Of a stretch of DNA of 38,136 nt, positions 905 through 31,429 are shown piece after piece. The stretch lies in contig DAOWIY010000003.1 of assembly GCA_030640665.1 (NCBI GenBank), forward strand, positions 1 to 38,136. The letters run 5' to 3'. The DNA is from Clostridia bacterium (GTDB taxonomy: Bacteria; Aerophobota; Aerophobia; Aerophobales; AE-B3A). Position 1 is the first letter of the stretch. The number at the start of each line of letters is the position of its first letter. The notes beneath the pieces were generated by a model. It made no database searches, had not been told where the DNA came from, and worked only from the letters and a program-made list of their open reading frames with translations. The position numbers and the translations under genes are program-made.

Positions 905-1144
905 TACATTAATGTTACATTAGTATCATGGTCATAATATCTAGAGTAACATATATCGCTATTGAAGATTGAAAGGTTAGGTTATAATATGGTAAGAAAA
1001 GGGGAAATTTTTAGAAAACAAACTTGCCCTTACGATAAACCCCCACCTTTTATTTTATTCTCGAAATTCAAAAAAGGAACTCTCCCCTAGTTGCGGGTAA
1101 ACTCATAGTCCCAGATAAGTCAAAAATTTTCATTGGAGGTAAGA

Positions 1145-2233
1145 ATGAGTGAAATACGAATTGCTATTGTCGGAGTAGGAAATTGTGCCAGTTCTCTGAT
1201 TCAAGGTATAGAATACTACAAAGACAAAAAAGAAGTGATTGGATTGATGCACTCTGAGATCGACGGTTACAAATTGAGTGACGTCAAAGCAGTGGCTGCA
1301 TTTGATATTGACCGAAGAAAAGTAGGTCGGGATTTAAGCGAGGCTATTTTTGCTAAGCCAAATTGTACAATGGTATTCTGTCCAGATGTTCCTCACTGTG
1401 GGGTAACGGTGAAAATGGGCCAGGTGTTAGATGGAGTGGCTGGACATATGAAAGAATATTCAGAAGAGAGAGCCTTTCGTCAAGCAGAGGAGGCTCCTAG
1501 TGAAGTTGTCGAGGAATTAAAGAAAAGCGGAGCCGAGATTTTGGTCAACTATCTGCCGGTAGGTTCAGAGGAAGGAAGCAGGTTTTATGCTCAAGCAGCC
1601 CTGGATGCAGGAGTAGCTTTTGTAAACTGCATACCTGCATTCATCGTCTCTGATAAGAAATGGGCAAGAAAATTTGAGGAGAGAGGACTTCCTATTGTAG
1701 GTGACGATATAAAAGCGCAGTTGGGCGCTACCATTACTCACCGTGTTCTGGCAAAATTATTTGCTGACCGAGGAGTAAAATTAGATCGTACCTATCAGCT
1801 TAATACAGGGGGAAATACCGATTTCTTAAATATGGTTGCCAGAGAAAGGCTTTCTTCCAAAAAGACTTCTAAAACAGAAGCCGTGCAGTCTCAATTGAAT
1901 GAACCACTTCCCCCTGAAAATATTCACATCGGACCCAGTGACTATGTTCCCTGGCAAAATGACAACAAGATCTGTTTTATCCGAATGGAGGGAAGAAAAT
2001 TTGGCGATGCACCTCTTGATCTTGAACTGCGGCTCAGTGTCCAGGATTCACCTAACAGTGCTGGTGTAGCTATAGACGCTATCAGATGCTGTAAGGTTGC
2101 CTTAGATAGAGGTACGAGCGGAGCACTAACTTCTATCTCTGCCTATACTATGAAACATCCTCCCATTCAATATTCAGACTCAGAAGCAAAGAAAATGGTA
2201 GAGGACTTCATTTCTGGAAAAATTGAAAGATGA
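1145..2233 (+). CDS. ino1: myo-inositol-1-phosphate synthase (archaeal/bacterial short type)
   Basis: ORF track 1133..2233. I prefer ATG 1145, preceded by GGAGGT at 1135-1140. It has an N-terminal Rossmann segment IRIAIVGVGNCASSLIQG and about 362 aa. Its stop overlaps the next start as ATGA. Confidence 0.85.
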   Translation: MSEIRIAIVGVGNCASSLIQGIEYYKDKKEVIGLMHSEIDGYKLSDVKAVAAFDIDRRKVGRDLSEAIFAKPNCTMVFCPDVPHCGVTVKMGQVLDGVAGHMKEYSEERAFRQAEEAPSEVVEELKKSGAEILVNYLPVGSEEGSRFYAQAALDAGVAFVNCIPAFIVSDKKWARKFEERGLPIVGDDIKAQLGATITHRVLAKLFADRGVKLDRTYQLNTGGNTDFLNMVARERLSSKKTSKTEAVQSQLNEPLPPENIHIGPSDYVPWQNDNKICFIRMEGRKFGDAPLDLELRLSVQDSPNSAGVAIDAIRCCKVALDRGTSGALTSISAYTMKHPPIQYSDSEAKKMVEDFISGKIER

Positions 2234-2925
2234 AAGCGGTAATTTTAGCCGCCGGCAAGGGAACAAGAACAAAACTAGCCATTCCCAAGCCTTTAATTAA
2301 AATAGCCGGCTCTTCGCTTCTGGAAAGAACAATTCTTACCTTTACCAGTCTGGGTATAAGAGAAATTGTCATCGTGGTGGGATATGAGGCGGAAAAGGTT
2401 AAAAATCATCTCAAAAACAAAGAATTTACTCAAAATTGTCAGATTACCTGGGTGGAAAATCTTCAATTTTATCGGGGCAATGGGGTTTCTATTCTTTGTG
2501 CCGAGGATTACCTCAAAGAGCGCTTTCTTCTGAGTATGGTTGATCACATCTATGAGGCGAAACTTTTCTTGGGTCTTTTATCCTGCCAGGGCGACCTTGT
2601 CTGTGTGGTGGATTCTCGCCCGAGGTTCGCTGATCCCAAAGATGCTACCAGGGTTCTTATTAAAGATGGTAGAATTAAAGGAATAGGTAAGGGTCTAGCT
2701 CCATATAATGCCCTTGATTGCGGACTGTTCCTCTGTTCAAGAAAGATTTTTCCTGTATTGAGGGAGACAGTAGAAGAAGGTAAAGAGGAATGGGATGATG
2801 CTAAGAAGAGATTTGCCAAAAGATTCTCTGCTAAAGTTTTTGACATATGTGGTGGATTCTGGTTAGATGTGGACACCCACCAGGACATAGCCAAAGCAAG
2901 AAGGCTTTTGAAAAAAAGGGAATAA
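2230..2925 (+). CDS. sugar-phosphate nucleotidyltransferase, probably CTP:inositol-1-phosphate cytidylyltransferase (IPCT)
   Basis: 231 aa with the AVILAAGKGTR...PKPL signature. Blocks GNGVSIL, RFLLSMVDHIY, SRPRFADPKDATRVLIKDGRIKGIGK and FWLDVDTHQD resemble, from memory, the IPCT domain of archaeal IPCT/DIPPS. It is translationally coupled to ino1. Confidence 0.65.
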   Translation: MKAVILAAGKGTRTKLAIPKPLIKIAGSSLLERTILTFTSLGIREIVIVVGYEAEKVKNHLKNKEFTQNCQITWVENLQFYRGNGVSILCAEDYLKERFLLSMVDHIYEAKLFLGLLSCQGDLVCVVDSRPRFADPKDATRVLIKDGRIKGIGKGLAPYNALDCGLFLCSRKIFPVLRETVEEGKEEWDDAKKRFAKRFSAKVFDICGGFWLDVDTHQDIAKARRLLKKRE

Positions 2926-2932
2926 AGAGAAG

Positions 2933-4339
2933 ATGAGGGCAATAATTATTGGTGCGGGGCCGGTTTCTAAACCTAAGAAATCACAGTCAAGGACTTTTCT
3001 CAAACTCTGCGGCCTTCCCTTGTTAAAGAGAACTCTATATCTTCTAAGGACAGTGGAGATAAGAGAGGTCATTGTTCTCCTTAAGGAGAACAATGACCAG
3101 ATAAAAAGGGAAATAAAAAATCTCAAAGATCTGGGGATGAGGTTGAAGTTTGTGGAAAAAGAGAAGTGGAGCCGGGCAATCTCTTCTCTCCAAAAAGAGA
3201 TGAAAGATGATTTCTTCTTGCTCATTGATAGCCATTGTGTCTTTGAGCTCAACCTCCTTAGAGTTCTCTTGCAATGCAAAAAAACCACCCTTTGCTGCGA
3301 CAGCCAACCAGAAGGCAGTTGCCTTACTCACTCTCCTAAAGTTTTCTCTAGAGATGGAAAAGTCGAGCGCATAGGCAATGATTTAGATAACTGGAACAAA
3401 GTTTATACCGGAATGGGGGTTTGCCGCAAGAGGGTTCTACTTAAATTAAGAGATAAGTTGCTGGAGGAAGAGAATCAGAACTCCGGAAAAAAGAATCAAC
3501 TCCCTGGACCCAGAAATACAGAGAAAGCTGAATGGTTTACCCTTTTCAATGATCTACCCAGGCGCACTCAGGCTGACTGTCTGGATATCTCTCAAACCGC
3601 CTCTTATGATTTGGAACTGCGTAGAGTTGTCAAACCTTTCTGGTACCGTATAGCCTCAGAAGAGGATCTAAAAGTAGCCAAGAAAAAGCTTATCGGAGAA
3701 ACCCAGAAAAGAACTCTTGATGTTATGGCCTGGTACGTTCACCGTCCTATAGAGAATAAGATTACCTGGTATCTTTCTGAGCTACCTCTCACTCCTAATC
3801 AAATAACCATACTTACCAATGCGCTTGCCTTTTTCATAACCTTTCTTTTCTTAAAAGGCTATCTTCTGGCTGCTTCCCTTCTTACCTTCCTCGTAAATAT
3901 TATGGATGGACTGGATGGTAAACAGGCACGAGCCAAGGGTATGTTTACCAAGGTGGGAAATCTTGAGCATTCCTTAGACACTCTTTATGAAGTGTCCTGG
4001 TATATAGCCTTTTCCTGGGCCATTTTCATGCTTACCAAATCTTTCTTACCTCTCAAGCTCTGCCTGATAATGATTCTTTTTGATGCCTTTAACCGACACT
4101 GCTCCATGCAATTTCGAGCCGTTATGAAGACTCCCCTGGCAGATTATGCTCCTTTTGACCGGGCTTTTAGACGCTTTGACGGAAGAAGAAATATCTACAC
4201 TATCTACATCTTTATCGGTGTGATTCTTGGCCTACCCGTATATTCCCTATTTGCCATGATGGTTCATGCCATCCTCACTGGTGTAGTCTACTTTATAAGA
4301 GCTGCCAAGCATATGCATGCCGCCGATATAGGCCGATGA
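2933..4339 (+). CDS. fusion of a degenerate IPCT-like domain and a CDP-alcohol phosphotransferase membrane domain (DIPP-synthase-like)
   Basis: 468 aa. The N-terminal half starts AIIIGAGP but lacks the GxGTR signature. The C-terminal half is hydrophobic and carries DGLDGKQAR-x8-G (residues 325-342) of the CDP-OH_P_transf family. Confidence 0.65.
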   Translation: MRAIIIGAGPVSKPKKSQSRTFLKLCGLPLLKRTLYLLRTVEIREVIVLLKENNDQIKREIKNLKDLGMRLKFVEKEKWSRAISSLQKEMKDDFFLLIDSHCVFELNLLRVLLQCKKTTLCCDSQPEGSCLTHSPKVFSRDGKVERIGNDLDNWNKVYTGMGVCRKRVLLKLRDKLLEEENQNSGKKNQLPGPRNTEKAEWFTLFNDLPRRTQADCLDISQTASYDLELRRVVKPFWYRIASEEDLKVAKKKLIGETQKRTLDVMAWYVHRPIENKITWYLSELPLTPNQITILTNALAFFITFLFLKGYLLAASLLTFLVNIMDGLDGKQARAKGMFTKVGNLEHSLDTLYEVSWYIAFSWAIFMLTKSFLPLKLCLIMILFDAFNRHCSMQFRAVMKTPLADYAPFDRAFRRFDGRRNIYTIYIFIGVILGLPVYSLFAMMVHAILTGVVYFIRAAKHMHAADIGR

Positions 4340-4388
4340 ACGCGCCGTGCTTGCATTTGTTTTTGGATATGATATACTAGAGCGGTTA

Positions 4389-4601
4389 AATTCGTATCCC
4401 GATGCTCGTTGTTCGTGATGTGTCTTGCGTGTTCCAAATATCGTTAATTTCGTTAGGTGAAGATAAAAGAATTTGAGGAGTTACCAACGAAAATAACGAA
4501 ACCAGCGAACCAAACGAAAAGAGGGGGAGAGAGAAAAAGCACGATGTGCTTTTTCAGGTGAGGGGGCACTAGATACGAGATGCGAACAACGAGATACGAA
4601 T
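4389..4601. repeat. intergenic inverted heptamer-repeat cassette E1 (nested arms)
   Basis: The 5' arm AATTCGTATCCCGATGCTCGTTGTTCGTGATG pairs with the 3' arm AGATACGAGATGCGAACAACGAGATACGAAT. Inner arms are 4441-4457 and 4483-4499. It ends 4 nt before the SD of hflK. Confidence 0.8.
4534..4554 (+). terminator. A-run/hairpin/T-run, intrinsic-terminator-like (potentially bidirectional)
   Basis: AAAAAGCAC-GAT-GTGCTTTTT forms a 9 bp stem with a 3 nt loop, and the T-run is part of the stem. It lies between the inositol cluster and hflK. Confidence 0.4.
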
Positions 4602-4617
4602 CAAAAAGGAGGTAAAA

Positions 4618-5586
4618 ATGGCTTATGAAGAGGGAAAAGGAGTTAATTTTCCCGAGTCCATACCCGGGAAGTGGATTGGCTGGGGAGTTGTAGGAATCAT
4701 CCTCATAATCATTCTGGTCTCTATTTTTTACTCAATTGGGCCCGAAGAAGTGGGGGTGATTAAAAGATGGGGTAGATATGTGCGATCTACAGAGCCTGGC
4801 CTACACGTTAAATTGCCTTTTGTGGAGTCAATAACCAAAGTTAAAGTAAAGCATATTTTCAAGGAGGAATTTGGTTTCAGGACTTTACAGGCGGGAGTGA
4901 AGACTATCTATGCTCCGGGTGGCTTTGAGGAAGAGAATTTGATGTTAACCGGCGATCTAAATGTGGCTGTGGTAGAATGGATCGTTCAGTATAAGATTGA
5001 AAACCCTATTGATTATCTTTTTGAAGTGAAGGATGTAGAGGATACGATTCGAGATATTTCTGAGTCAGCTATGCGCCAGATAGTGGGAGACAGAAGTGTA
5101 GATGAGGTCTTGACAGTGGGACGAATAGAGGTTGGGCTGGAGATGCAGGAAAAACTTCAGCAAATTCTAGATACCTACCGAACAGGAGTCCAGATAACCA
5201 CGGTTAAACTGAAGGATGTTAATCCGCCTAATGCAGTGAAGTCTTCCTTTAATGAGGTTAATGTGGCAAAACAGGATAAGGAGACAACTATTAATCAAGC
5301 CGAGCAGGAGTATAATAGGGTTATTCCCAGAGCAAAAGGAGAAGCAGAAAAAACGATTAGCCAGGCGGAAGGATATGCAGTGAATAGAATTAATCGAGCC
5401 CGAGGAGATGCTACTAAGTTTCTTGCTGTCTGGAAAGAGTATAATAAAGCCAGGGATGTAACCAGAAGAAGACTTTATCTCGAGACTCTGGAGGAAATTC
5501 TGCCTAAAATAGGGACAAAATATATCATCGATTCAGAGCAGAAAGGGATATTACCTCTTTTGTCTTTGAGCGAAGGAGGTAAGTGA
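4618..5586 (+). CDS. hflK: SPFH/band-7 protease modulator HflK
   Basis: 322 aa with an N-terminal TM segment, then an SPFH domain (VGVIKRWGRYV...PGLHVKLPF) and a coiled C-terminus. It is followed by an overlapping paralog. Confidence 0.85.
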   Translation: MAYEEGKGVNFPESIPGKWIGWGVVGIILIIILVSIFYSIGPEEVGVIKRWGRYVRSTEPGLHVKLPFVESITKVKVKHIFKEEFGFRTLQAGVKTIYAPGGFEEENLMLTGDLNVAVVEWIVQYKIENPIDYLFEVKDVEDTIRDISESAMRQIVGDRSVDEVLTVGRIEVGLEMQEKLQQILDTYRTGVQITTVKLKDVNPPNAVKSSFNEVNVAKQDKETTINQAEQEYNRVIPRAKGEAEKTISQAEGYAVNRINRARGDATKFLAVWKEYNKARDVTRRRLYLETLEEILPKIGTKYIIDSEQKGILPLLSLSEGGK

Positions 5587-6524
5587 TGAAGATAGAGCGA
5601 TTGATTCCCATAATAGTAGTGATTATTTTAGGCTTGATTATTTTGGGAGGAACCTTATATACGGTAGATCAAACCGAGCAGGTGGTCATTACTCAGTTCG
5701 GTGAACCTATAGGTGAGCCTATTACTGAACCTGGTCTACACTTTAAAACACCTTTTATCCAAAAGATAAACTCTTTCGAAAAACGCTTCTTAGCCTGGGA
5801 TGGGCTTCCTACACAGGTTCCTACCAAGGATAAAAGATACATCTGGGTTGATACCACGGCCCGATGGAGAATTGTTGACCCTCTCAAGTTTCTGCAAACA
5901 GTAGGAACTGAGAGAACAGCTCTAGGCAGGCTCGATGATATCATTGATTCTGCTACCAGAAATCAGATTACCAGTCACATTCTCTATGAGTTAGTGAGAG
6001 ACTCAGAGAGGGAATTTGCCGAGACGGAATTAAGCATACAAGTTGAGGAGACTATAGGTAAGGTGGAGTATGGTCGGGAGAAGATAAGCCGAGCCATCCT
6101 GAAAGAAGCATCTGAGGGTGTTCCTCGATTCGGGATAGAACTAATCGATGTCAGGATTAAGAGGCTCAATTATGTGGAGCAGGTAAGGCAAGGAGTTTAT
6201 GCTCGAATGATTGCCGAGAGAAAAAGGGTAGCTGAGCAATATCGCTCTGAAGGTCAGGGGGGAAAGGCCGAAATTGAGGGAAGGAAAGAAAAAGAGCTGC
6301 AAAGGATCACTTCTGAGGCTTATAAAAAGGCACAGGAAATTAAGGGAGAGGCTGATGCACAAGCGACCGGGATATATGCCGGGGCCTATAATAAAGATCC
6401 CGAGTTTTACTCATTCTTAAAGACATTAGAGACATATAAGGAAACTCTGGATGAGGATACATGGCTGATTTTAACCTCGGATAGTGACTTTTATAAGTAT
6501 CTAAAGAGTCTCTCTCCTCGGTAA
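5586..6524 (+). CDS. hflC: SPFH/band-7 protease modulator HflC
   Basis: ORF track start is 5583 (GTG). ATG 5586 has better spacing from GGAGG. It has a TM segment plus an SPFH domain (VVITQFGEPIGEPITEPGLHFKTPF). Confidence 0.85.
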   Translation: MKIERLIPIIVVIILGLIILGGTLYTVDQTEQVVITQFGEPIGEPITEPGLHFKTPFIQKINSFEKRFLAWDGLPTQVPTKDKRYIWVDTTARWRIVDPLKFLQTVGTERTALGRLDDIIDSATRNQITSHILYELVRDSEREFAETELSIQVEETIGKVEYGREKISRAILKEASEGVPRFGIELIDVRIKRLNYVEQVRQGVYARMIAERKRVAEQYRSEGQGGKAEIEGRKEKELQRITSEAYKKAQEIKGEADAQATGIYAGAYNKDPEFYSFLKTLETYKETLDEDTWLILTSDSDFYKYLKSLSPR

Positions 6525-6534
6525 ATTATCACGA

Positions 6535-6562
6535 TTGACATAAAAAAAAAGTTATTTATAAT
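6535..6562 (+). promoter_or_regulatory. near-consensus sigma70-type promoter upstream of ppdK
   Basis: TTGACA at 6535-6540, a 16 nt A/T-rich spacer, then TATAAT at 6557-6562. Confidence 0.55.
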
Positions 6563-6650
6563 AAGGAAGAAAATTATTAAGGAGAAATAACAAAAAGTAA
6601 AGAAATAGCAGAAAAATAAAGAAGTTAGGTAAAGGAGTAAAAAAGAAAAA

Positions 6651-9332
6651 ATGGGGGGATATGTATATTTTTTTGCGCAAAATAAGGCCAGTGGATCAGC
6701 GAAAATGAGAAATCTTCTGGGAGGTAAAGGAGCTAATCTTGCTGAAATGGCTAATTTAGGAATCCGAGTGCCCCCTGGCTTTACTATCAGTACTGAAGTA
6801 TGCAACTACTACACAGAGCACCATAATTATCCAGAAGACTTAGAGACAGAGATAAGGGAAAATTTAAATAAGGTAGAAGAAGCCACTGGAAAAAGATTTG
6901 GTGACATTCAAAATCCTCTATTGGTTTCCGTTCGCTCAGGAGCGAGAGTTTCTATGCCAGGGATGATGGATACTGTTCTTGATTTGGGACTAAGTGATAT
7001 TACAGTAGAGGGATTAGTTGAAGAGACGGAAAACCCGCGCCTTGCTTATGATGCTTACAGAAGACTGGTTCAGATGTTCGGCAATGTAGTTTTGGGAATA
7101 GAGGGAGAAAAATTTGAGGAGTTGATAGAAGAGAAAAAAAAGAGTAAAGATGCAAAGGAAGATATTGATTTAGCCTGGCAAGATCTGAAGGGATTAGTAG
7201 ATGAGTTCAAAGAGTTGATAGAAAAGGAGAAGGGTATTCAATTTCCTCAAGACCCTTTTAAGCAACTGAATATGGCCATAGATGCCGTTTTTGCTTCATG
7301 GAATAATAAAAGGGCTGTTAATTATCGTAAGATTAATAAAATTCCCGAACACTGGGGAACAGCCGTGAACGTCCAGGTAATGGTATTTGGGAATATGGGG
7401 AATGATTCTGGCACAGGGGTGGGGTTTACCCGAAATCCTGCCACTGGCAAAAAGGAGATATATGGAGAGTATCTACTTAATGCTCAAGGAGAAGATGTTG
7501 TTGCAGGCATAAGAACTCCTCACCCTTTCTCTAAGCTAAAGGAAGAGATGCCGCAGGTTTATCAAGAGCTAGTAGAGGTTGTTCAAAGATTAGAAGATCA
7601 CTATAAGGATGTGCAAGATTTTGAATTTACCATAGAGAAAGGGAAACTTTATTTACTTCAGACCAGGACGGGTAAAAGAACTACTCAAGCAGCAGCGAAG
7701 ATAGCCTGTGATATGGTTGAGGAGAGACTAATCGATAAAAAAGAGGCTTTGATGAGGGTAGAACCTGGTCAACTTAAGCAGCTTCTTCACCGAGGTATCG
7801 ATCCAGAGGCAGAACTTGAAGTATTTGCTAGAGGTCTTCCTGCTTCTCCAGGGGCAGCTACGGGTGCAATAGTTTTTACTGCGGATAGAGCTGTGGAATT
7901 AGCTCAAGATGGAAGAAAGGTTATTCTGGTTCGCAAAGAAACTTCTCCTGAAGATATTCATGGTATGGCTGCTGCCGAGGGAATACTTACTGCTCGCGGG
8001 GGGATGACTTCGCATGCTGCTATCGTGTCCAGAGGTATGGGTAAGTGCTGTATAGCTGGTTGTGAAGCTCTAAAGGTAGATGAGAAAAAGAAAAGATTTG
8101 AAGTAGATGGACTTGTTTTTAAAGAGGGTGACTTTATTACTCTGGATGGCAGTGCAGGAAGAGTGATAAAGGGAGAAGTACCCACACTCGAACCTGAGCT
8201 AAGCAGCGAGTTTAAAAAACTTATGAGATGGGCAGATGAGATAAGAACTCTTGGAGTAAGAGCTAATGCGGATACGCCTGAAGATGCAAAAAAAGCTCGT
8301 GAGTTAGGAGCAGAAGGAATTGGACTTTGCCGAACTGAGCATATGTTTTTTGGAGAAGAGAGGCTTCCTTACGTTCAGAAGATGATTTTAGCTGAAGATG
8401 AAGAAGTAAGAAAAGAAGCCTTAGAAAAATTAGAACCTATGCAGAGGGAAGATTTCAAAGGAATTTTAAGAGAAATGGAAGGTTTACCAGTTATTATTCG
8501 TCTGCTTGATCCCCCCCTGCATGAATTTTTGCCCCATTATGAAAGTCTTCTCCTGGAGGTTAATAAGTTAAAGTTGGAAAAAACCGAAGATAAGGAAAAG
8601 ATCCAGGAGAAAGAGAAGATTCTCCAGCGTATAGTAGACCTGCGAGAGGTGAACCCCATGCTGGGGCACAGGGGCTGTAGATTGGGGATAACCTTTCCTG
8701 AAGTTTACAATATGCAGGTGAGAGCAGTTTTTGAAGCAGCGGCAGAGCTGATTCTTGAGGATGTCAAGGTTTATCCAGAGATAATGATTCCTCTTGTGGC
8801 CAATGAGAAGGAGTTATCTTTTCTCCGAAAACAAGTAATTGAAGTGGCTGGAGAGATAATGAGAGAAAAAGGAGTAGAGTTTGAGTACAAGGTAGGCACG
8901 ATGATTGAACTTCCTCGAGCTGCTTTCTGTGCAGACAAAATCGCTCAAGAGGCAGATTTTTTCTCCTTCGGCACCAATGACCTAACCCAAACTACATTTG
9001 GGTTTAGCCGCGATGATGCAGAAGCTAAGTTTATACCTGCATATATTGAAAAGAAGATTCTGGAAGATGACCCTTTCGAGGTATTGGATCAAGAAGGGGT
9101 GGGGCAACTTCTGAAGATGGGAATAGAGAGAGGGCGCAAGACGAATAAAGATTTGGAAGTGGGCATTTGTGGCGAACACGGAGGCGAGCCCTCTTCGGTT
9201 AAGTTCTGTTACCAGATAGGGATGGACTATGTAAGTTGTTCCCCTTATAGAGTTCCCATTGCTCGATTGGCTGCTGCTCAGGCAATACTGGAAGATAGAA
9301 AAGCTATAAGTGACAAGTTTTTTAAAGAGTAG
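6651..9332 (+). CDS. ppdK: pyruvate, phosphate dikinase
   Basis: 893 aa. It has N-terminal LLGGKGANLAEM, the phosphohistidine segment GGMTSHAAIVSRGMG, and a C-terminal PEP-utilizer barrel with GTNDLTQ. Confidence 0.95.
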   Translation: MGGYVYFFAQNKASGSAKMRNLLGGKGANLAEMANLGIRVPPGFTISTEVCNYYTEHHNYPEDLETEIRENLNKVEEATGKRFGDIQNPLLVSVRSGARVSMPGMMDTVLDLGLSDITVEGLVEETENPRLAYDAYRRLVQMFGNVVLGIEGEKFEELIEEKKKSKDAKEDIDLAWQDLKGLVDEFKELIEKEKGIQFPQDPFKQLNMAIDAVFASWNNKRAVNYRKINKIPEHWGTAVNVQVMVFGNMGNDSGTGVGFTRNPATGKKEIYGEYLLNAQGEDVVAGIRTPHPFSKLKEEMPQVYQELVEVVQRLEDHYKDVQDFEFTIEKGKLYLLQTRTGKRTTQAAAKIACDMVEERLIDKKEALMRVEPGQLKQLLHRGIDPEAELEVFARGLPASPGAATGAIVFTADRAVELAQDGRKVILVRKETSPEDIHGMAAAEGILTARGGMTSHAAIVSRGMGKCCIAGCEALKVDEKKKRFEVDGLVFKEGDFITLDGSAGRVIKGEVPTLEPELSSEFKKLMRWADEIRTLGVRANADTPEDAKKARELGAEGIGLCRTEHMFFGEERLPYVQKMILAEDEEVRKEALEKLEPMQREDFKGILREMEGLPVIIRLLDPPLHEFLPHYESLLLEVNKLKLEKTEDKEKIQEKEKILQRIVDLREVNPMLGHRGCRLGITFPEVYNMQVRAVFEAAAELILEDVKVYPEIMIPLVANEKELSFLRKQVIEVAGEIMREKGVEFEYKVGTMIELPRAAFCADKIAQEADFFSFGTNDLTQTTFGFSRDDAEAKFIPAYIEKKILEDDPFEVLDQEGVGQLLKMGIERGRKTNKDLEVGICGEHGGEPSSVKFCYQIGMDYVSCSPYRVPIARLAAAQAILEDRKAISDKFFKE

Positions 9333-9383
9333 CGGTGCGATTTATCGCACATTGGAAGGTCTTAAAGCTTACAGCTGGGTAAG

Positions 9384-9468
9384 GGGGAGGTGCCAGAGTG
9401 GCCAAATGGGGCGGGCTGTAAACCCGCTGGCGTTGCCTACGATGGTTCAAATCCATCCCTCCCCACCA
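9384..9468 (+). tRNA. tRNA-Tyr (GTA), long variable arm, encoded CCA
   Basis: Acceptor GGGGAGG/CCTCCCC, anticodon loop CTGTAAA, T-loop GGTTCAAATCC. Closely resembles E. coli tRNA-Tyr. Confidence 0.9.
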
Positions 9469-9555: not shown

Positions 9556-9736
9556 ATTTCGTATATAGTATATGGTATATGGTAGGGAGACTTTGAAACG
9601 CACAACAGTACTGAAATTCCAGATTCCGCAGGAATAGATTAGTTTGTAAGGTTAGGAAAGAGAAGTTCCCTCTCCCTTCTGAGAAGGGGTGAGGGGATTT
9701 TTTCTTCACGATATACTACATACGATATACGAGTTT
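9556..9736. repeat. intergenic inverted heptamer-repeat cassette E2
   Basis: The 5' arm is TTCGTAT-ATAGTAT-ATGGTAT-ATGGTAG at 9558-9585. The 3' arm CACGATATACTACATACGATATACGAG at 9707-9733 is its imperfect complement. It ends just before the SD of tuf. Confidence 0.75.
9668..9703 (+). terminator. intrinsic-terminator-like hairpin with T6 tail inside cassette E2
   Basis: CCCTCTCCCTTC-TGA-GAAGGGGTGAGGG forms a stem of about 12 bp (one bulge, one GU), followed by GATTTTTT. Confidence 0.5.
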
Positions 9737-9753
9737 AAAAAGGAGGAAAAAAG

Positions 9754-11106: not shown

Positions 11107-11181
11107 GTCCGTAGCTCAAGTGGCTAGAGCACCGGACTCCAAATCCGGCGGTTGCGGGTTCAAGTCCTGCCGGACCTGCCA
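11105..11181 (+). tRNA. tRNA-Trp (CCA), encoded CCA end
   Basis: Acceptor AGGTCCG/CGGACCT, anticodon stem-loop CCGGA-CTCCAAA-TCCGG, T-arm GCGGG-TTCAAGT-CCTGC. It overlaps the rpmG stop by 2 nt. Confidence 0.88.
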
Positions 11182-11185
11182 AAAT

Positions 11186-11289
11186 AGTTCATAGTTATGA
11201 GTTCGTAGTTCATTGATAAAACAACGAATGGTGAACCAATTGGCTAAGGGGCTGATAGGTCAATGAACTATGAACTACGAACAATGAAC
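11186..11289. repeat. intergenic inverted heptamer-repeat cassette E3 (GTTCRTA flavour)
   Basis: The 5' arm is GTTCATA-GTTATGA-GTTCGTA-GTTCATT at 11187-11214. The 3' arm TCAATGAACTATGAACTACGAACAATGAAC lies at 11260-11289. Confidence 0.8.
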
Positions 11290-11302
11290 AGAGTTAACAA
11301 GA

Positions 11303-17505: not shown

Positions 17506-17516
17506 GAGATAAAAAA

Positions 17517-19577
17517 TTGTGGAAGATGGATGATATTAATAAGATCAAGGTGAGATTAGCCTCTCCTGAGGAGATAAAGGAGTGGTCCTATGGAGAGGTA
17601 AAGAAGACAGATACTATTAATTACCGTACTTTTAGGCCAGAAAGGAGAGGTCTTTTTTGTGAACAAATCTTTGGTCCTACAAAGAGTTATGAATGTTACT
17701 GTGGTAAATATAGGAAAATGAAATACAAGGGAGTCAAGTGTGAGAGGTGTGGAGTAGAGGTTACTTCTTCTAAAGTTCGCCGGGAAAGAATGGGACATAT
17801 TGAACTGGCTACTCCAGTTGTCCATATCTGGTATGCAAAGAATCACCTACCTCTTTTTTTGGGGCTCAAAAGGAATGATTTGGATAAAATAGTTTATTTT
17901 GTAAATTATTTAGTTATAGACCCGGCCGAGACTCCTTTGAAGAAAATACAGGTTTTAAATGGGGAGGAGTACCAAAGATATAAGGACCTATATGGTGAAG
18001 ATAGTTTCAAGGCAGCCACAGGAGCAGAAGCAATCTTGGAGGTCCTGCAAGCCATAAAGATTGAAAGACTAAGGGAAGAATTAAAGGAGAATCTATTTGC
18101 CGAAAGGACTAAAGGAAAAAGGATAAAGTTAATCAAGCGACTAGAAGTAGTAGAGAGTTTTTTCCACTCAGGGAATAAACCTGAGTGGATGATTTTAAAA
18201 GTTGTTCCTGTTATTCCTCCTGACTTCCGACCCATGGTTCAATTGGAAAGTGGAATTTTTGCCAATTCAGATTTAAATGATTTGTATCGACGGATCATTA
18301 ATCGCAATAACCGTCTTAAATATCTACTAGAAATAGGTGCACCTCAAATAATTATTCAAAACGAGAAAAAAATGCTCCAACAATCTGTAGACGCCCTTTT
18401 TGAAAATGAGAAACTTTCTCAACCTATATTAGGAGCAGGAGGTAGACCTCTTAAGTCTCTAAGTGAGATAGTCAAAGGTAAACAAGGTAGATTTCGGCAG
18501 AATCTCCTTGGCAAAAGAGTTGATTATTCAGGAAGGGGAGTAATCGTACCCGGGCCGGATTTAAAGATTTATCAATGCGGACTGCCCGAAAAGGTAGCCC
18601 TGGAGCTTTTTAAACCCTTCGTCCTTGGAGAAGTTATGCGGGAAGGTAAAGCTGAGACTATAAAAAGGGCTAATGATTTAATAGAAAAGGCCGATTCCTT
18701 TGTTTGGAAGATATTGGAAAAGGTGGTTGAGGATCATCCTATACTCCTAAACCGTGCTCCTACCCTGCATCGTTTAGGAGTCCAGGCTTTTCAACCGGTC
18801 TTAATAGAGGGAAATGCTATTCAGCTGCATCCTCTGGTATGTGCTGCTTTTGGCGCTGATTTTGATGGCGATCAGATGGCCATACATATTCCTCTTTCTT
18901 ATGAGGCCCAGCTTGAGGCAAAAACTTTGCTGCTTTCCAGTAATAATCTTCTTTCTCCTGCCAGTGGCAACCCTGTGGTCACTCCTACTCGGGATATTAC
19001 CGTTGGTTGTTATTATTTGACTATAGAGGGAAAAGGAGAAACCAAGAAGAGAGTTTTCTCTAGTCCGGACGAGGTAATCCTTGCCTATGATTTAGGAAAA
19101 ATAGCCCTTCACCAGCCTATGAAGTTGTTCTTAAAGAAAGGGTGGATAGAGACTACAGTAGGAAGAGTAATTTTCAATAAGGTCCTTCCAGAAGGAATGG
19201 ATTTCGAGAACTTTCCTATAGATAAAGAGAAATTAGGCGAGATCATAAGTAAGGTTTGGAAGAAATATGGAAATGCAGTCACAGTTGAGGTTTTGGATGA
19301 GATGAAAAAGTTAGGATTTGAATATGTTACCAAATCAGGATTAACTTTTGCTATGTCTGATGTACCTGATATACCAGAAAAGAGAGAACTGTTACAGTAC
19401 GAAGAGGATGAGGTAAAGGGATACGACTTATTAGCTGAAGAAGGAAAGATCAGTGAGGAAGAAAGATATATTGAGGTGATTGATTCGAGGATGAGGGTTA
19501 TTGATCAAATAGGAGGAAAGGTATCTCAATCTCTGTCTCGTAATCCTTTTAATCCTCTTTATTTGATGTGGAAATGA
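17517..19577 (+). CDS. rpoC: RNA polymerase subunit beta-prime, N-terminal 686 codons, ending at an in-frame TGA
   Basis: Zn finger CYCGKYRKMKYKGVKCERCGVEV, RFRQNLLGKRVDYSGR, and catalytic loop GADFDGDQMA. TTG 17517 or ATG 17526 is the start. The frame continues directly into the next ORF. Confidence 0.9.
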   Translation: MWKMDDINKIKVRLASPEEIKEWSYGEVKKTDTINYRTFRPERRGLFCEQIFGPTKSYECYCGKYRKMKYKGVKCERCGVEVTSSKVRRERMGHIELATPVVHIWYAKNHLPLFLGLKRNDLDKIVYFVNYLVIDPAETPLKKIQVLNGEEYQRYKDLYGEDSFKAATGAEAILEVLQAIKIERLREELKENLFAERTKGKRIKLIKRLEVVESFFHSGNKPEWMILKVVPVIPPDFRPMVQLESGIFANSDLNDLYRRIINRNNRLKYLLEIGAPQIIIQNEKKMLQQSVDALFENEKLSQPILGAGGRPLKSLSEIVKGKQGRFRQNLLGKRVDYSGRGVIVPGPDLKIYQCGLPEKVALELFKPFVLGEVMREGKAETIKRANDLIEKADSFVWKILEKVVEDHPILLNRAPTLHRLGVQAFQPVLIEGNAIQLHPLVCAAFGADFDGDQMAIHIPLSYEAQLEAKTLLLSSNNLLSPASGNPVVTPTRDITVGCYYLTIEGKGETKKRVFSSPDEVILAYDLGKIALHQPMKLFLKKGWIETTVGRVIFNKVLPEGMDFENFPIDKEKLGEIISKVWKKYGNAVTVEVLDEMKKLGFEYVTKSGLTFAMSDVPDIPEKRELLQYEEDEVKGYDLLAEEGKISEEERYIEVIDSRMRVIDQIGGKVSQSLSRNPFNPLYLMWK

Positions 19578-19619
19578 GGAGGGAGAGGATCTGCTGATCA
19601 GCTGCGCCAGATAATAGGG

Positions 19620-21077
19620 ATGAGGGGTTTGATGGGTAGATCCATAAGGGAGACCTATCGCCGTGAACTTTGGGATGAGGTGTTCAAAAGAAGGTTAAAT
19701 ATTTCTCTGGAATTAATTAAGCAATATTTTTATCCTCTTTCAGGAGGTAGGTTAAAAGGAAGAATTGGAGAGGAGCCTATTAGATCTAGCTTTAAAGAAG
19801 GTCTTACTGGTCCGGAGTATTTTTTTTCTACCTCCGGAGGTAGAAAAGGTTTGGTGGATACTGCTCTAAAAACAGCTTATGCAGGTTATCTTACTCGCAA
19901 GTTAGTGGCTGTAGCTCAAGACCTCGTTATTACTGAGAAGGATTGTGGAACTATTGATGGTTTTTCTATGGAGCCCTTAGTTGAAGAAGGGAAGGTAATG
20001 GAGCCTTTAGAAAAGAGGATATTGGGTAGAGTAACTGCTTCTCCTGTGATAGATCCTTCTACTAAAGAAACCATTATAGGTTCTAATGAGGAAATTACAG
20101 AAGAGCTCGCCCAAAAGATAGAAGAGGTGGGGGTGAAGAAGGTGAAGATTCGTTCTCCCTTATCCTGTCAGGCTAAGTGGGGATTGTGTCAAAGGTGTTA
20201 TGGGTGGGATCTTTCTGTTCATAAACTAGTTGATCTGGGAGAGGCAGTAGGAGTGATAGCAGCACAATCTATAGGTGAACCAGGAACTCAGCTTACCTTA
20301 CGTACATTTCACACAGGGGGAGTATTTCAGAAAGGTGGAGATATTCCTCAGGGTTTACCTCGAGCAACGGAACTTTTTGAACCTCGAAAGAAAAGTTATC
20401 CCCGAAAAGGAGTTATACGACAGCGCAGAGGAGAAGAAGCGCTAATAAGTGAAGTGGAAGGAAAGGTGAGTATAGAAGAAAGAGAGGGGCGCAGTTTTGT
20501 TAAGATTAAAGGAGAAAAGGATGAAGAGGTAATTTATGAAGTGGAAGGAGAAATGTTAGTCTCTGAGGGTGAAACAGTAGAAGCAGGAGAGAAGATAATT
20601 GAAGGAAGTATAAATCCCCGTTCTCTTTTAAGTATAAAAGGGATTAGAGCTGTAGAAAAATATTTGGTTGATCAAACTCAACAGGTTTATAAATCTCAAG
20701 GAGTGGATATTAGCACTAAGCACTTTGAGGTAATTATAAGACAGATGATGAGAAAAGTCCAGGTAGAAGAGCCGGGAGACACAGGTTACCTGCCAGGAGA
20801 ACAAGAGGATAAGATAGAGTTTGAGAAAATCAATAAGGAAATAAAGGAAGGAGGAGGTAAGCCCGCTACGGTAAAGCCTGTTCTTTTAGCTATTCCTAAA
20901 GCAGCACAGGAAAATAAGGAGAGTTTTTTGTCTGCTGCTTCTTTCCAGAGAACGAGGCAAGTTTTAGCTGAGGCAGCGCTCTACGGACAAGTAGATTCTC
21001 TTAGGGGACTTAAAGCAAACGTAATTATCGGTAAGCTAATTCCAGCAGGGACAGGATTTAATCTAAATAAGGAATAA
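19620..21077 (+). CDS. rpoC: RNA polymerase subunit beta-prime, C-terminal part (same frame as 17517..19577)
   Basis: Homology already resumes at 19578 ([19 protein letters not shown]). Contains bridge helix [24 protein letters not shown] and trigger loop [17 protein letters not shown]. The ATG at 19620 is only the ORF-finder start. Confidence 0.9.
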
Positions 21078-21958: not shown

Positions 21959-22033
21959 CTCGTATATCGTGAAGAAAAAAGTAAAGAAGCAAGAATCCAC
22001 AAGATACGAGATACAAACAACGAGATACGAATT
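21957..22033. repeat. intergenic heptamer-repeat cassette E4 (short 5' arm, long ACGA-type 3' arm)
   Basis: CTCGTATATCGTG at 21959-21971 pairs with CACAAGATACGAG at 21998-22010. The rest of the 3' arm, ATACAAACAACGAGATACGAATT, has no local partner. Confidence 0.75.
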
Positions 22034-22051
22034 ATTAAATCCAGGTTGAGA

Positions 22052-24440: not shown

Positions 24441-25063
24441 TGAAGGCAATTTTAGGGAAAAAACTTGGAATGACTCAGGTATTTAATAAAGATTCTCTTG
24501 TTCCTGTAACTGTAGTGCAGGCGGGTCCCTGTGTGGTGGTTCAGAAAAAAGTGAAGGAGAAAGATGGATATAACGCAATCCAGTTGGGTTTTGTAGAAAT
24601 AAGAGAGAATCAGATTAATAAACCAGAGTTAGGGCACTTCAAAAAAGGCGAAGTTCATCCTCGAAGGTACCTTAAGGAAATGAGGGTAGAAGATGTTAAC
24701 CAATTAAGGGTTGGAGATAAGATTAAAGTAGATATTTTTAAAGAGGGCGATCTGGTTAATGTTGTTGGTATTTCTAAAGGAAAAGGATTTGCAGGAGTAG
24801 TTAAAAGATACGGCTTTAAAGGTGGTCCTGCCTCTCATGGGGCAAAGCTCTGGCATCGTCGGCCTGGTTCTATAGGGGCTTCTGCCGATCCTTCCCGAGT
24901 ATTTAAGGGTAAAAAAATGCCAGGGAGAATGGGGACGGAAAGAAAGACAATCTGTAATTTGAAGATAGTAAAAGTAGACAAGGAGGAAAATCTCCTTTTA
25001 ATTAAAGGAAGTCTTCCAGGGAAAAGGGGAGCGTTATTGACCATAAGTGGTGCTAGGGGTTAA
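24437..25063 (+). CDS. rplC: 50S ribosomal protein L3
   Basis: 208 aa with [12 protein letters not shown] and FKGGPASHG. Confidence 0.96.
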
Positions 25064-25978: not shown

Positions 25979-26812
25979 ATGCCTGTAAAAATTTATAAAC
26001 CTACTTCTCCCGGCAAGAGGCGAAAAAGTGGATATAGTTTTTCTGAAATTACCAGGAAAAAATCGGAAAAAAGCCTCGTTGTCAGTTTAGGGAAAAAAGC
26101 TGGTAGAAATAATCAAGGCAGAATCAGCATAAGGCACAGAGGAGGGGGAGCCAAGAGAAAGTACCGCCTGATTGATTTCAAAAGAGACAAAGAAAAGGTT
26201 CCAGCTTATGTTGCTTCCATTGAATATGATCCTAATAGGTCAGCCAGAATTGCTCTTCTCCATTACAAGGATGGAGAAAAAAGATATATAATCGCTCCCT
26301 TGACTTTAAAAGTAGGAGATGAGATTATTTCAGGTGAAGAAGCTGCGCTAAAACCTGGAAATGCTCTTCCTTTACGAAAGATTCCTGAAGGAAGTTTCAT
26401 TTACAATATTGAGTTAAAAAAAGGGAAAGGGGGCCAATTGGTTCGATCTGCGGGAACAAGTGCTGAGCTTTTAAGTAAAGAGGGGAAGTTTGCTCAAATT
26501 AAGCTTCCCTCAAGTGAAGTGAGGCTGATTCCTTTGGAATGTAAGGCTACCTTAGGCCAGGTAGGAAATTTAGAACATGAAAACATTATAATTGGCAAAG
26601 CTGGTAGATCTAGATGGTTAGGTCGGCGTCCTCGGGTACGGGGATCAGCTATGAACCCTGTAGATCATCCTCATGGAGGAGGAGAAGGTCGTAGTGGTCC
26701 AGGAAGGCATCCGGTGAGTCCACAGGGTAAGCCTGCTAAAGGGGGAAAAACCCGAAAAAAGAGGAAATTCTCAGATAAATTCATCGTTCAAAGAAGGAAA
26801 AAGAAGCGATAA
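25979..26812 (+). CDS. rplB: 50S ribosomal protein L2
   Basis: 277 aa with [12 protein letters not shown] and [16 protein letters not shown]. Confidence 0.97.
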
Positions 26813-26884
26813 ATTCGTATCTCGTTGTTCGTATCTCGTGAAAGAAATTTCCTCTCCCCTTGGGGAGAGGATTAAGGTGAGGGG
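26812..26884. repeat. intergenic heptamer-repeat cassette E5 (solo TCGT-type arm plus internal hairpin module)
   Basis: AATTCGTATCTCGTTGTTCGTATCTCGTG starts in the last base of the rplB TAA. It is followed by hairpin CCTCTCCC-CTTG-GGGAGAGG (26851-26870) and GGTGAGGGG (26876-26884). There is no local complementary arm. Confidence 0.75.
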
Positions 26885-26944
26885 AAAAGTAACCAATTAA
26901 CTAGTTGAACTAATTAACTAACGAAGAAGAAGGGAGAGAAAAGT

Positions 26945-29212: not shown

Positions 29213-29577
29213 TTCAACCTCAAACTCAACTTGTGGTTGCCGATAATACTGGAGCGAAGAGATTAATGTGTATAAGAGTACTAGGGGGATCATCGCGTCG
29301 TTATGCTCGAATAGGGGATATAATAGTGGCGTCGGTGAAGAGGACTGTTCCTAATAGTGAAATAAAAAAAGGCGAGGTAGTGAAGGCAGTAGTTGTTAGG
29401 ACAAAAAAAGAAATACGTAGGCAAGATGGTTCGTATGTAAGATTTGACGAGAATGCAGCAGTATTAATTGACGCAACTGGGAACCCAAGAGGAACAAGAA
29501 TTTTTGGTCCTGTAACCCGGGAACTTAGAGAAAAGAATTTTATGAAGATTATTTCCTTAGCACCTGAGGTACTTTAA
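29209..29577 (+). CDS. rplN: 50S ribosomal protein L14
   Basis: 122 aa with a GTG start, beginning [17 protein letters not shown], ending APEVL. Confidence 0.96.
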
Positions 29578-29667
29578 AATTCGTTGCTAGTCGCTCGTTG
29601 CTTGTATCTCGCACCAAAAAAGAGGACAGGCTATTTTTATTTTATACGAACAACGAGCAACGAAAAT
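29578..29667. repeat. intergenic inverted heptamer-repeat cassette E7
   Basis: The 5' arm is AATTCGTTG-CTAGTCG-CTCGTTG-CTTGTAT-CTCG. The 3' arm ATACGAACAACGAGCAACGAAAAT lies at 29644-29667. Confidence 0.8.
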
Positions 29668-30020: not shown

Positions 30021-30569
30021 GTGGCTAGACTTAAAGAAATCTACAAGAAAGAGATCATTCCGTTGATGATTAAGAAATTTGGCTACAAGAATCTTATGGG
30101 GGTTCCTAAGATTGAGAAAGTTTGTCTTAATATAGGGGCAGGTAGCGCTAAAAAGGATACTAAATTACTGGACGCAGCTAAGAGGAGTCTTGCTTTGATT
30201 AGCGGGCAGCAACCTATAATTACCAAGGCTAAAAAGTCTATTGCTGGTTTTACTTTGAGAAAAGGTACTTCTATAGGTTGCAAAGTTACCCTCAGAGGGG
30301 AAAGGATGTATGAGTTTTTAGATAGGTTATTTAATTTGGCTATGCCCAGAATTAGAGATTTTCAGGGTATTTCTTTAAACCAATTTGACGGCAGAGGTAA
30401 TTTTACTCTAGGTTTGCGAGAACAATTGATGTTTCCAGAAGTTTCTTATGAAGGAGAAAACACCCAGGGTTTATCCATAACTATAGTAACCACAGCTAAA
30501 AAAGATGAGGAAGCTAAGGAACTACTTGCTTCTCTGGGGATGCCTTTTAAAACAGTTCATAGTTCGTAG
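30021..30569 (+). CDS. rplE: 50S ribosomal protein L5
   Basis: 182 aa with a GTG start, beginning [14 protein letters not shown]. The last 5 codons (TVHSS) and the stop lie inside cassette E8. Confidence 0.95.
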
Positions 30570-30620
30570 TTCAACAGTGACGAATGTTACTATTGATTTA
30601 GTCAATGAACTATGAACTAC
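30553..30620. repeat. inverted heptamer-repeat cassette E8 (GTTCRTA flavour) overlapping the rplE 3' end
   Basis: CAGTTCATAGTTCGTAGTTCAAC at 30553-30575 pairs with GTCAATGAACTATGAACTAC at 30601-20. Confidence 0.8.
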
Positions 30621-30670
30621 CAGCGAGCTCGTAAGAGCGAGCGTATAATGAACACAAAAAGGGAGAGGAA

Positions 30671-30856: not shown

Positions 30857-31267
30857 ATGGAGGATGTAATGTTTACCGACCCCATTGCTGATTTATTAAC
30901 CAGAATCAGAAATGCTAATATGCTTTCCAAAGCTAAAGTTGAACTTTCGAGTTCTAATATAAAGGAAAAGGTAGTATCAGTTTTAAAAAGAGAGGGTTTC
31001 ATAAAAGGATATAGAGTTGTAGTGCAGGGGAAAAAGAGGATCCTTCAGATATACTTAAGATATTCCGAAGATGGAAAAGGTCTAATTACTCATTTGGAGC
31101 GAGTTAGCAAACCTGGTAGACGAAGATTTGCCAAGGAGAGGGAAGTACCTAGAGCGGTAAGGGAAAGGTTAGGGATTTGTATTCTTTCTACCTCTAAAGG
31201 AATCCTTACCGCTGAGGAAGCGCACAAGTTAGGAGTAGGAGGAGAAATTCTTTGCTATGTATGGTAA
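30857..31267 (+). CDS. rpsH: 30S ribosomal protein S8
   Basis: Contains TDPIADLLTRIRNA and the C-terminal CYVW. The start is ATG 30857 or ATG 30869 (GGAGGA lies 4 nt upstream of the latter). Confidence 0.95.
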   Translation: MEDVMFTDPIADLLTRIRNANMLSKAKVELSSSNIKEKVVSVLKREGFIKGYRVVVQGKKRILQIYLRYSEDGKGLITHLERVSKPGRRRFAKEREVPRAVRERLGICILSTSKGILTAEEAHKLGVGGEILCYVW

Positions 31268-31413
31268 ATTCGTTGTTCGTTGTTCGTATCTCGTAAGGAA
31301 AGAAAAAAACGATTGAAAAGATTAAAGATTTTAGAGATTTGGAGACCTGAAAGAAGGATATTGTGTTTTGTGTAACGTATCTTGAGCGAGATACGAGCGA
31401 CGAGATACGAATT
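31268..31413. repeat. intergenic inverted heptamer-repeat cassette E9
   Basis: The 5' arm is ATTCGTTG-TTCGTTG-TTCGTAT-CTCGTAA directly after the rpsH TAA. The 3' arm is GAGCGAG-ATACGAG-CGACGAG-ATACGAATT at 31384-31413. The interior has GATT recurring four times at 7-10 nt intervals. Confidence 0.8.
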
Positions 31414-31429
31414 TAAGAGGGAGTTTGTT

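Follow-up and report, generated by a model that had tools for sequence, protein, structure and literature searches.

The in-frame TGA that interrupts the RNA polymerase beta-prime gene (rpoC) of an Aerophobetes metagenome-assembled genome (MAG; GCA_030640665.1) is most probably (about 85%) an error of sequencing, amplification or consensus calling, or else a rare non-viable variant that found its way into the MAG; it is not a programmed event. The DNA analysed, referred to here as the window, comprises 38,136 nt of contig DAOWIY010000003.1 (positions 1-38,136, forward strand). On the sequences compared, the stop is private to this assembly and is no lineage trait, and the beta-prime of the organism itself is almost certainly normal. 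The relevant features of the gene are listed below.

17526-21077, forward strand: rpoC (RNA polymerase beta-prime), 1183 codons from the ATG at 17526, with one TGA at codon 684.
17517, forward strand: alternative rpoC start (TTG); the translation of 17517-21077 has 1186 residues and a single internal stop.
19575-19577, forward strand: in-frame TGA, in the place of the conserved Ser of (K/D)SG(A/G)RGS.
19576, forward strand: the differing base, G in the window and C in every close relative.
19578-19619, forward strand: 14 codons from the stop to the first possible start, without an in-frame ATG, GTG or TTG.
19620-21077, forward strand: open frame of 485 aa beginning at the first ATG after the stop; it covers the C-terminal 41% of beta-prime.

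The initial annotation of this region described two rpoC open reading frames in the same frame, separated by a single stop, and the translation and the list of open reading frames agree with it: the open stretches 17517-19577 (686 aa) and 19578-21077 share a frame and have one TGA between them. The nearest database proteins are DNA-directed RNA polymerase subunit beta-prime sequences of Candidatus Aerophobetes (1183-1190 aa), and near-identical proteins carry the Rpb1 domains 1-5 (PF04997, PF00623, PF04983, PF05000 and PF04998). The gene occupies its usual place in the nusG-rplKAJL-rpoB-rpoC-rpsL-rpsG-fusA-S10 cluster, as seen from the open reading frames of the window and from gene calls and Pfam matches on a 99.7%-identical contig, where the same gene is called as a single 1183-aa product.

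The stop lies in the context CCT CTT TAT TTG ATG TGG AAA TGA GGA GGG AGA GGA TCT. When the surrounding segment was aligned with solved beta-prime structures, the Ser of DSGARG fell opposite the stop (query residue 40 = residue 732 of B. subtilis 6wvj_D). The match to B. subtilis beta-prime had an E-value of 3e-32, and E. coli residues 751-816 were also aligned; from a 4-residue offset in the same structure search, the site would correspond to E. coli residue 728. The proposal that the TGA replaces a conserved Ser of this motif is thus borne out, both by the structures and by the alignment of all relatives. A second feature of the beta-prime sequence is an insertion of about 37 residues after GMRGLM and before the bridge helix (window ~19644-19754), which all 29 relatives within the order have and which neither the outgroup genomes nor any solved beta-prime structure shows (query residues 61-99 unmatched). 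The catalytic motif FGADFDGDQM (window 18852-18872) is shared by all 18 close beta-prime sequences that were retrieved, full-length or partial. Its G stands where E. coli has N (NADFDGD) and, being found in 18 of 18 close sequences, is a trait of the lineage and not an error.

Comparison with relatives gave no second example of the stop. A six-frame search matched rpoC in 36 of 40 relatives, none of them with a stop in the matched region, and where the codon was read directly it was TCN (Ser) in all 29 relatives (15 families of the order) as well as in the outgroup. In the nearest of the 29, the sister genome G002, the 21-nt context is identical save that the G is a C. A 25-mer pattern with N at the variable base was run against public contig collections; it was found in only two other public contigs, one from a JGI metagenome (97.3% nucleotide identity) and one from an NCBI MAG (98.3%), both of which have TCA. 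At the protein level, 15 of the 17 members of the 90%-identity cluster were listed, and among these 14 are full length (1183-1186 aa), the sole shortened one being the window's own 686-aa fragment. Public assemblies were also queried for exact copies of the two pieces (N-terminal and C-terminal) and of the read-through protein, with the aim of locating an independent assembly from the same population; nothing was on record, nor is a stand-alone 485-aa product on record elsewhere.

The nearest strain is represented by contig JAGMBE010000067.1 (GCA_023129925.1; L093 below), which matches the window at 99.70% identity across 23,552 nt and has TCA. Inside rpoC the two differ at three bases only, 17799, 19576 and 20533. 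An alignment of 17 near-identical beta-prime sequences showed that the differences at 17799 and 20533 are polymorphisms common to other strains, and that the window stands alone at a single position of the 1183-residue protein, the stop at residue 684. Over the 23.5 kb, 64 of the 68 substitutions relative to L093 are transitions; the change at 19576 is the only G/C transversion, and so is unlike the natural variation around it. The view that TCA to TGA is a one-base change therefore stands, as close relatives differ by C versus G at 19576. It had also been proposed that a sense codon in sister genomes would point to error or to a private mutation; the comparison has now been made, and the close ones carry TCA. 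One further difference from L093 lies in rplC (window 24861-24865), where two 1-nt indels at a distance of 4 nt compensate each other, so that one or two codons are shifted before the frame is restored.

The rest of the gene shows no sign of decay. Across 9,931 codons aligned between the window and G002 there were 357 synonymous and 287 non-synonymous differences, one nonsense difference (the rpoC TGA) and no frameshifts. With a single nonsense codon and no frameshift over this distance, neither rpoC nor its neighbourhood is decaying, in line with the earlier opinion that the gene is no decayed pseudogene. A search for a second rpoC returned one match only in the window's genome (G000, 84.5% complete), and the 38 kb of the window held no further clear error, which counts against a technical cause.

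Could the two open frames instead be two genuine subunits? Beta-prime would then be made as two polypeptides, one of 686 aa and one of 485 aa, divided at a novel position, as in the cyanobacterial gamma/beta-prime or archaeal A'/A'' arrangements. Both frames are indeed long and each is intact, and the stop is directly followed by a purine-rich stretch, GGAGGGAGAGG, that resembles a ribosome-binding site. The stretch nevertheless codes for G-G-R-G; it is ordinary coding sequence, identical in TCA strains and present in the unsplit genes of relatives. The first start downstream of the stop, ATG 19620, drops 14 conserved residues, as originally noted, and no ATG, GTG or TTG precedes it in frame, so that a split protein would lose these near-invariant residues, including the GRGS motif. 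The arrangement occurs in none of the 29 relatives, is absent from the 99.7%-identical strain, and the other 14 listed members of the protein cluster are full length. The position also differs from the known one, since the alignment to the pieces of cyanobacterial beta-prime starts near residue 158 of the second subunit (8syi_Z). Elsewhere in the order, moreover, rpoB and rpoC are fused and not split. A two-polypeptide beta-prime, offered at first as one of the options, is accordingly very improbable: it is not conserved, has no usable start and would cost 14 conserved residues.

The fusion just mentioned was observed in two genomes of one genus, belonging to another family of the order, where rpoB and rpoC form a single open frame (2256 and 2260 aa):

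L099 (= G015:C80) 976-7746, reverse strand: rpoB-rpoC fusion.
L100 (= G021:C126) 2662-9444, forward strand: rpoB-rpoC fusion.

The C-terminus of beta is joined to the N-terminus of beta-prime by three residues (...MEKGEE-PWK-MDNIDKIK...), and the proteins P0037 and P0066 likewise have Rpb2 as well as Rpb1 domains. Fusions of beta and beta-prime occur in Helicobacter and Wolbachia, and that in Aerophobetes seems to be an independent case.

The DNA between rpoB and rpoC is itself variable. From the rpoB stop to the rpoC start the window has an 11-nt spacer (17506-17516), whereas G002 carries a 173-nt insert (L032 2455-2629, JAUVZS010000131.1, a 98%-identical sister) with inverted arms of heptamer-like words, TAGTAGATTAGTTAATTAG ... 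CTAATTAACTAATCTACTAATC. This presence/absence polymorphism suggests that the intergenic inverted-repeat cassettes of the genome are mobile. A dispersed family of intergenic repeats was also seen, in which short stretches of the window match dozens of different contigs in the sister genomes G001 and G002 at 75-100% identity:

4414-4620: intergenic repeat stretch.
9291-9390: intergenic repeat stretch.
9666-9752: intergenic repeat stretch.
11175-11296: intergenic repeat stretch.
21998-22038: intergenic repeat stretch.
26806-26925: intergenic repeat stretch.
29566-29661: intergenic repeat stretch.
30555-30653: intergenic repeat stretch.
31267-31421: intergenic repeat stretch.

A different possibility is that the TGA is decoded as an amino acid, either under genetic code 4 or 25 or as selenocysteine. 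The feature that speaks for this is a predicted RNA hairpin, whose spacing from the UGA is near that of bacterial SECIS elements:

19587-19643, forward strand: predicted RNA hairpin, starting 12 nt after the TGA (-24.7 kcal/mol, z -3.5).

The TCA-bearing L002, L031 and L093 have exactly this hairpin, in sequence and in fold; other genera do not conserve the fold. Since it is unchanged in TCA strains, it represents no adaptation to the stop. Usage of TGA as a terminator points the same way: it ends 9 of the 39 genes of the window, including rplA, rpsJ, rplD, rplP and rplO, at conserved C-termini, and 210 of 674 long open frames genome-wide (31%). Among same-frame neighbours, those with one TGA between them number 11 of 61 and are, if anything, under-represented. 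The 10 such pairs other than rpoC were inspected by sequence alone; six have the look of separate neighbouring genes (primase/sigma-factor-like, formyltransferase/AMMECR1-like and PEPCK/purC-like among them), three appear non-coding, and one, on contig C96, is described below.

The decoding apparatus likewise appears conventional. The anticodon of tRNA-Trp is CCA, and the 19 tRNAs identified include neither a UCA-anticodon tRNA nor a suppressor tRNA (at a genome completeness of 84.5%, the tRNA set is incomplete). For tRNA-Sec, the best model score was 41.8 bits, below the cut-off of 47, and that match is a tRNA-Ser (GCT). SelA and SelB domains were not found in the genome, although at 84.5% completeness of the assembly the absence of decoding genes is not proof. 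A literature search found no paper tying Aerophobetes to stop-codon peculiarities. Genome-wide recoding of TGA is rejected on stop-codon usage together with the inspection of the 10 other TGA-separated pairs. Selenocysteine is rejected as well, with no tRNA-Sec over the cut-off, no SelA or SelB found, a hairpin that is the same in TCA strains, and homologues that have Ser and not Cys at the site. Recoding in either form is effectively refuted, and the probability left to it is negligible.

The pair on C96 (genome G000, minus strand, reverse-complement 213-1881) consists of a 300-aa gene with a BPL_N domain and a signal peptide, then one TGA, followed in frame by a 255-codon open stretch that is a paralogue of the BPL_N gene (24% identity, E 1e-6). 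The second stretch has no ATG before the start of the domain and only a TTG at codon 10. The pair may represent two tandem genes or a second in-frame TGA.

It might also be supposed that the TGA is a real nonsense allele in living cells, tolerated because UGA termination is leaky or because polyploid cells keep intact copies. Leakiness could arise from near-cognate reading by tRNA-Trp (CCA), or from a suppressor tRNA in the unassembled part of the genome, and the incomplete set of 19 tRNA genes leaves room for the latter. The remainder of rpoC is intact and only two other bases differ from the nearest strain, so any such change would be very recent; the stable hairpin 12 nt downstream of the TGA would also fit. 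That hairpin is, however, the same in TCA strains, as is the whole context, so nothing is adapted to the stop. No suppressor or UCA-anticodon tRNA is among the 19 found, an efficient suppressor would be costly where TGA ends 9 of the 39 genes in the window, and Trp is unlikely to be neutral at a site where 29 relatives and the solved structures invariably have Ser. Nor does the stop occur in any other strain. An allele of this kind is therefore unlikely. The stricter version, in which the TGA is the majority allele in living Aerophobetes and beta-prime is made by inefficient UGA read-through (with the hairpin perhaps helping) or from intact copies in polyploid cells, is more doubtful still. 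If true, it would offer a natural example in which an essential gene survives because termination at a stop codon is leaky.

The initial annotation had also listed a nonsense allele rescued by read-through or a suppressor, and had advised a search of the genome for a UGA-suppressor tRNA. That search yielded none among the 19 tRNAs (an incomplete set), and the option is without support. Its alternative of an error or a population variant fared better, with a Ser codon in 29 relatives, in the contigs at 97-98% identity, in 14 listed cluster members and in the 99.7%-identical strain.

Error or a rare non-viable allele is the most economical explanation, because rpoC is essential and single-copy and nothing in the genome is adapted to the stop. 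The G for C at 19576 is a private single-base difference in an otherwise intact, single-copy and essential rpoC. The TGA most likely entered through sequencing, amplification or consensus error; alternatively, the assembler may have picked up DNA of dead cells or of a rare non-viable variant. A point against the error reading is that, with good coverage, Illumina-type data seldom give substitution errors in the consensus. We infer that the cause is either technical or a minority allele. The working gene almost certainly has Ser at codon 684 and specifies one beta-prime of 1183 residues, as in all relatives.

The rpoC stop matters mainly as a point of quality control. In the record, rpoC would appear as a pseudogene or in two fragments, and such annotation could mislead marker-gene phylogenies, completeness estimates and searches for recoding. 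Were the stop real and carried by the majority of cells, rpoC would be an unusual essential gene dependent on UGA read-through; nothing found points there.

Among known systems, the cyanobacterial and plastid rpoC1/rpoC2 genes and the archaeal A'/A'' genes share with the window two consecutive open frames in one operon. Those natural splits are conserved across whole phyla, with a start for each piece and no loss of conserved residues, whereas the break described here is present in one assembly, would remove 14 conserved residues and falls within region F, immediately before the bridge helix, not at the known split site. Genetic codes 4 and 25 and selenocysteine share with it an in-frame UGA inside a conserved protein. 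Reassignment of UGA, or its use for selenocysteine, affects many genes and involves a dedicated tRNA, while in the genome of the window UGA is a normal stop, the tRNA-Trp is of the CCA type and no selenocysteine machinery was found. A third comparison is with spurious pseudogenes. Many 'pseudogenes' with internal stops are assembly artefacts, and near-identical genomes that differ in internal stops are a signature of such artefacts, especially at low coverage (Cooley and Wright 2024, BMC Genomics 25:365; PMC11017572). While those errors were shown to come from sequencing or assembly, a technical cause for the rpoC stop is only probable, and the likeness to them is in the pattern itself: one stop, a conserved gene that is otherwise intact, and a near-identical genome in which the same gene is whole.
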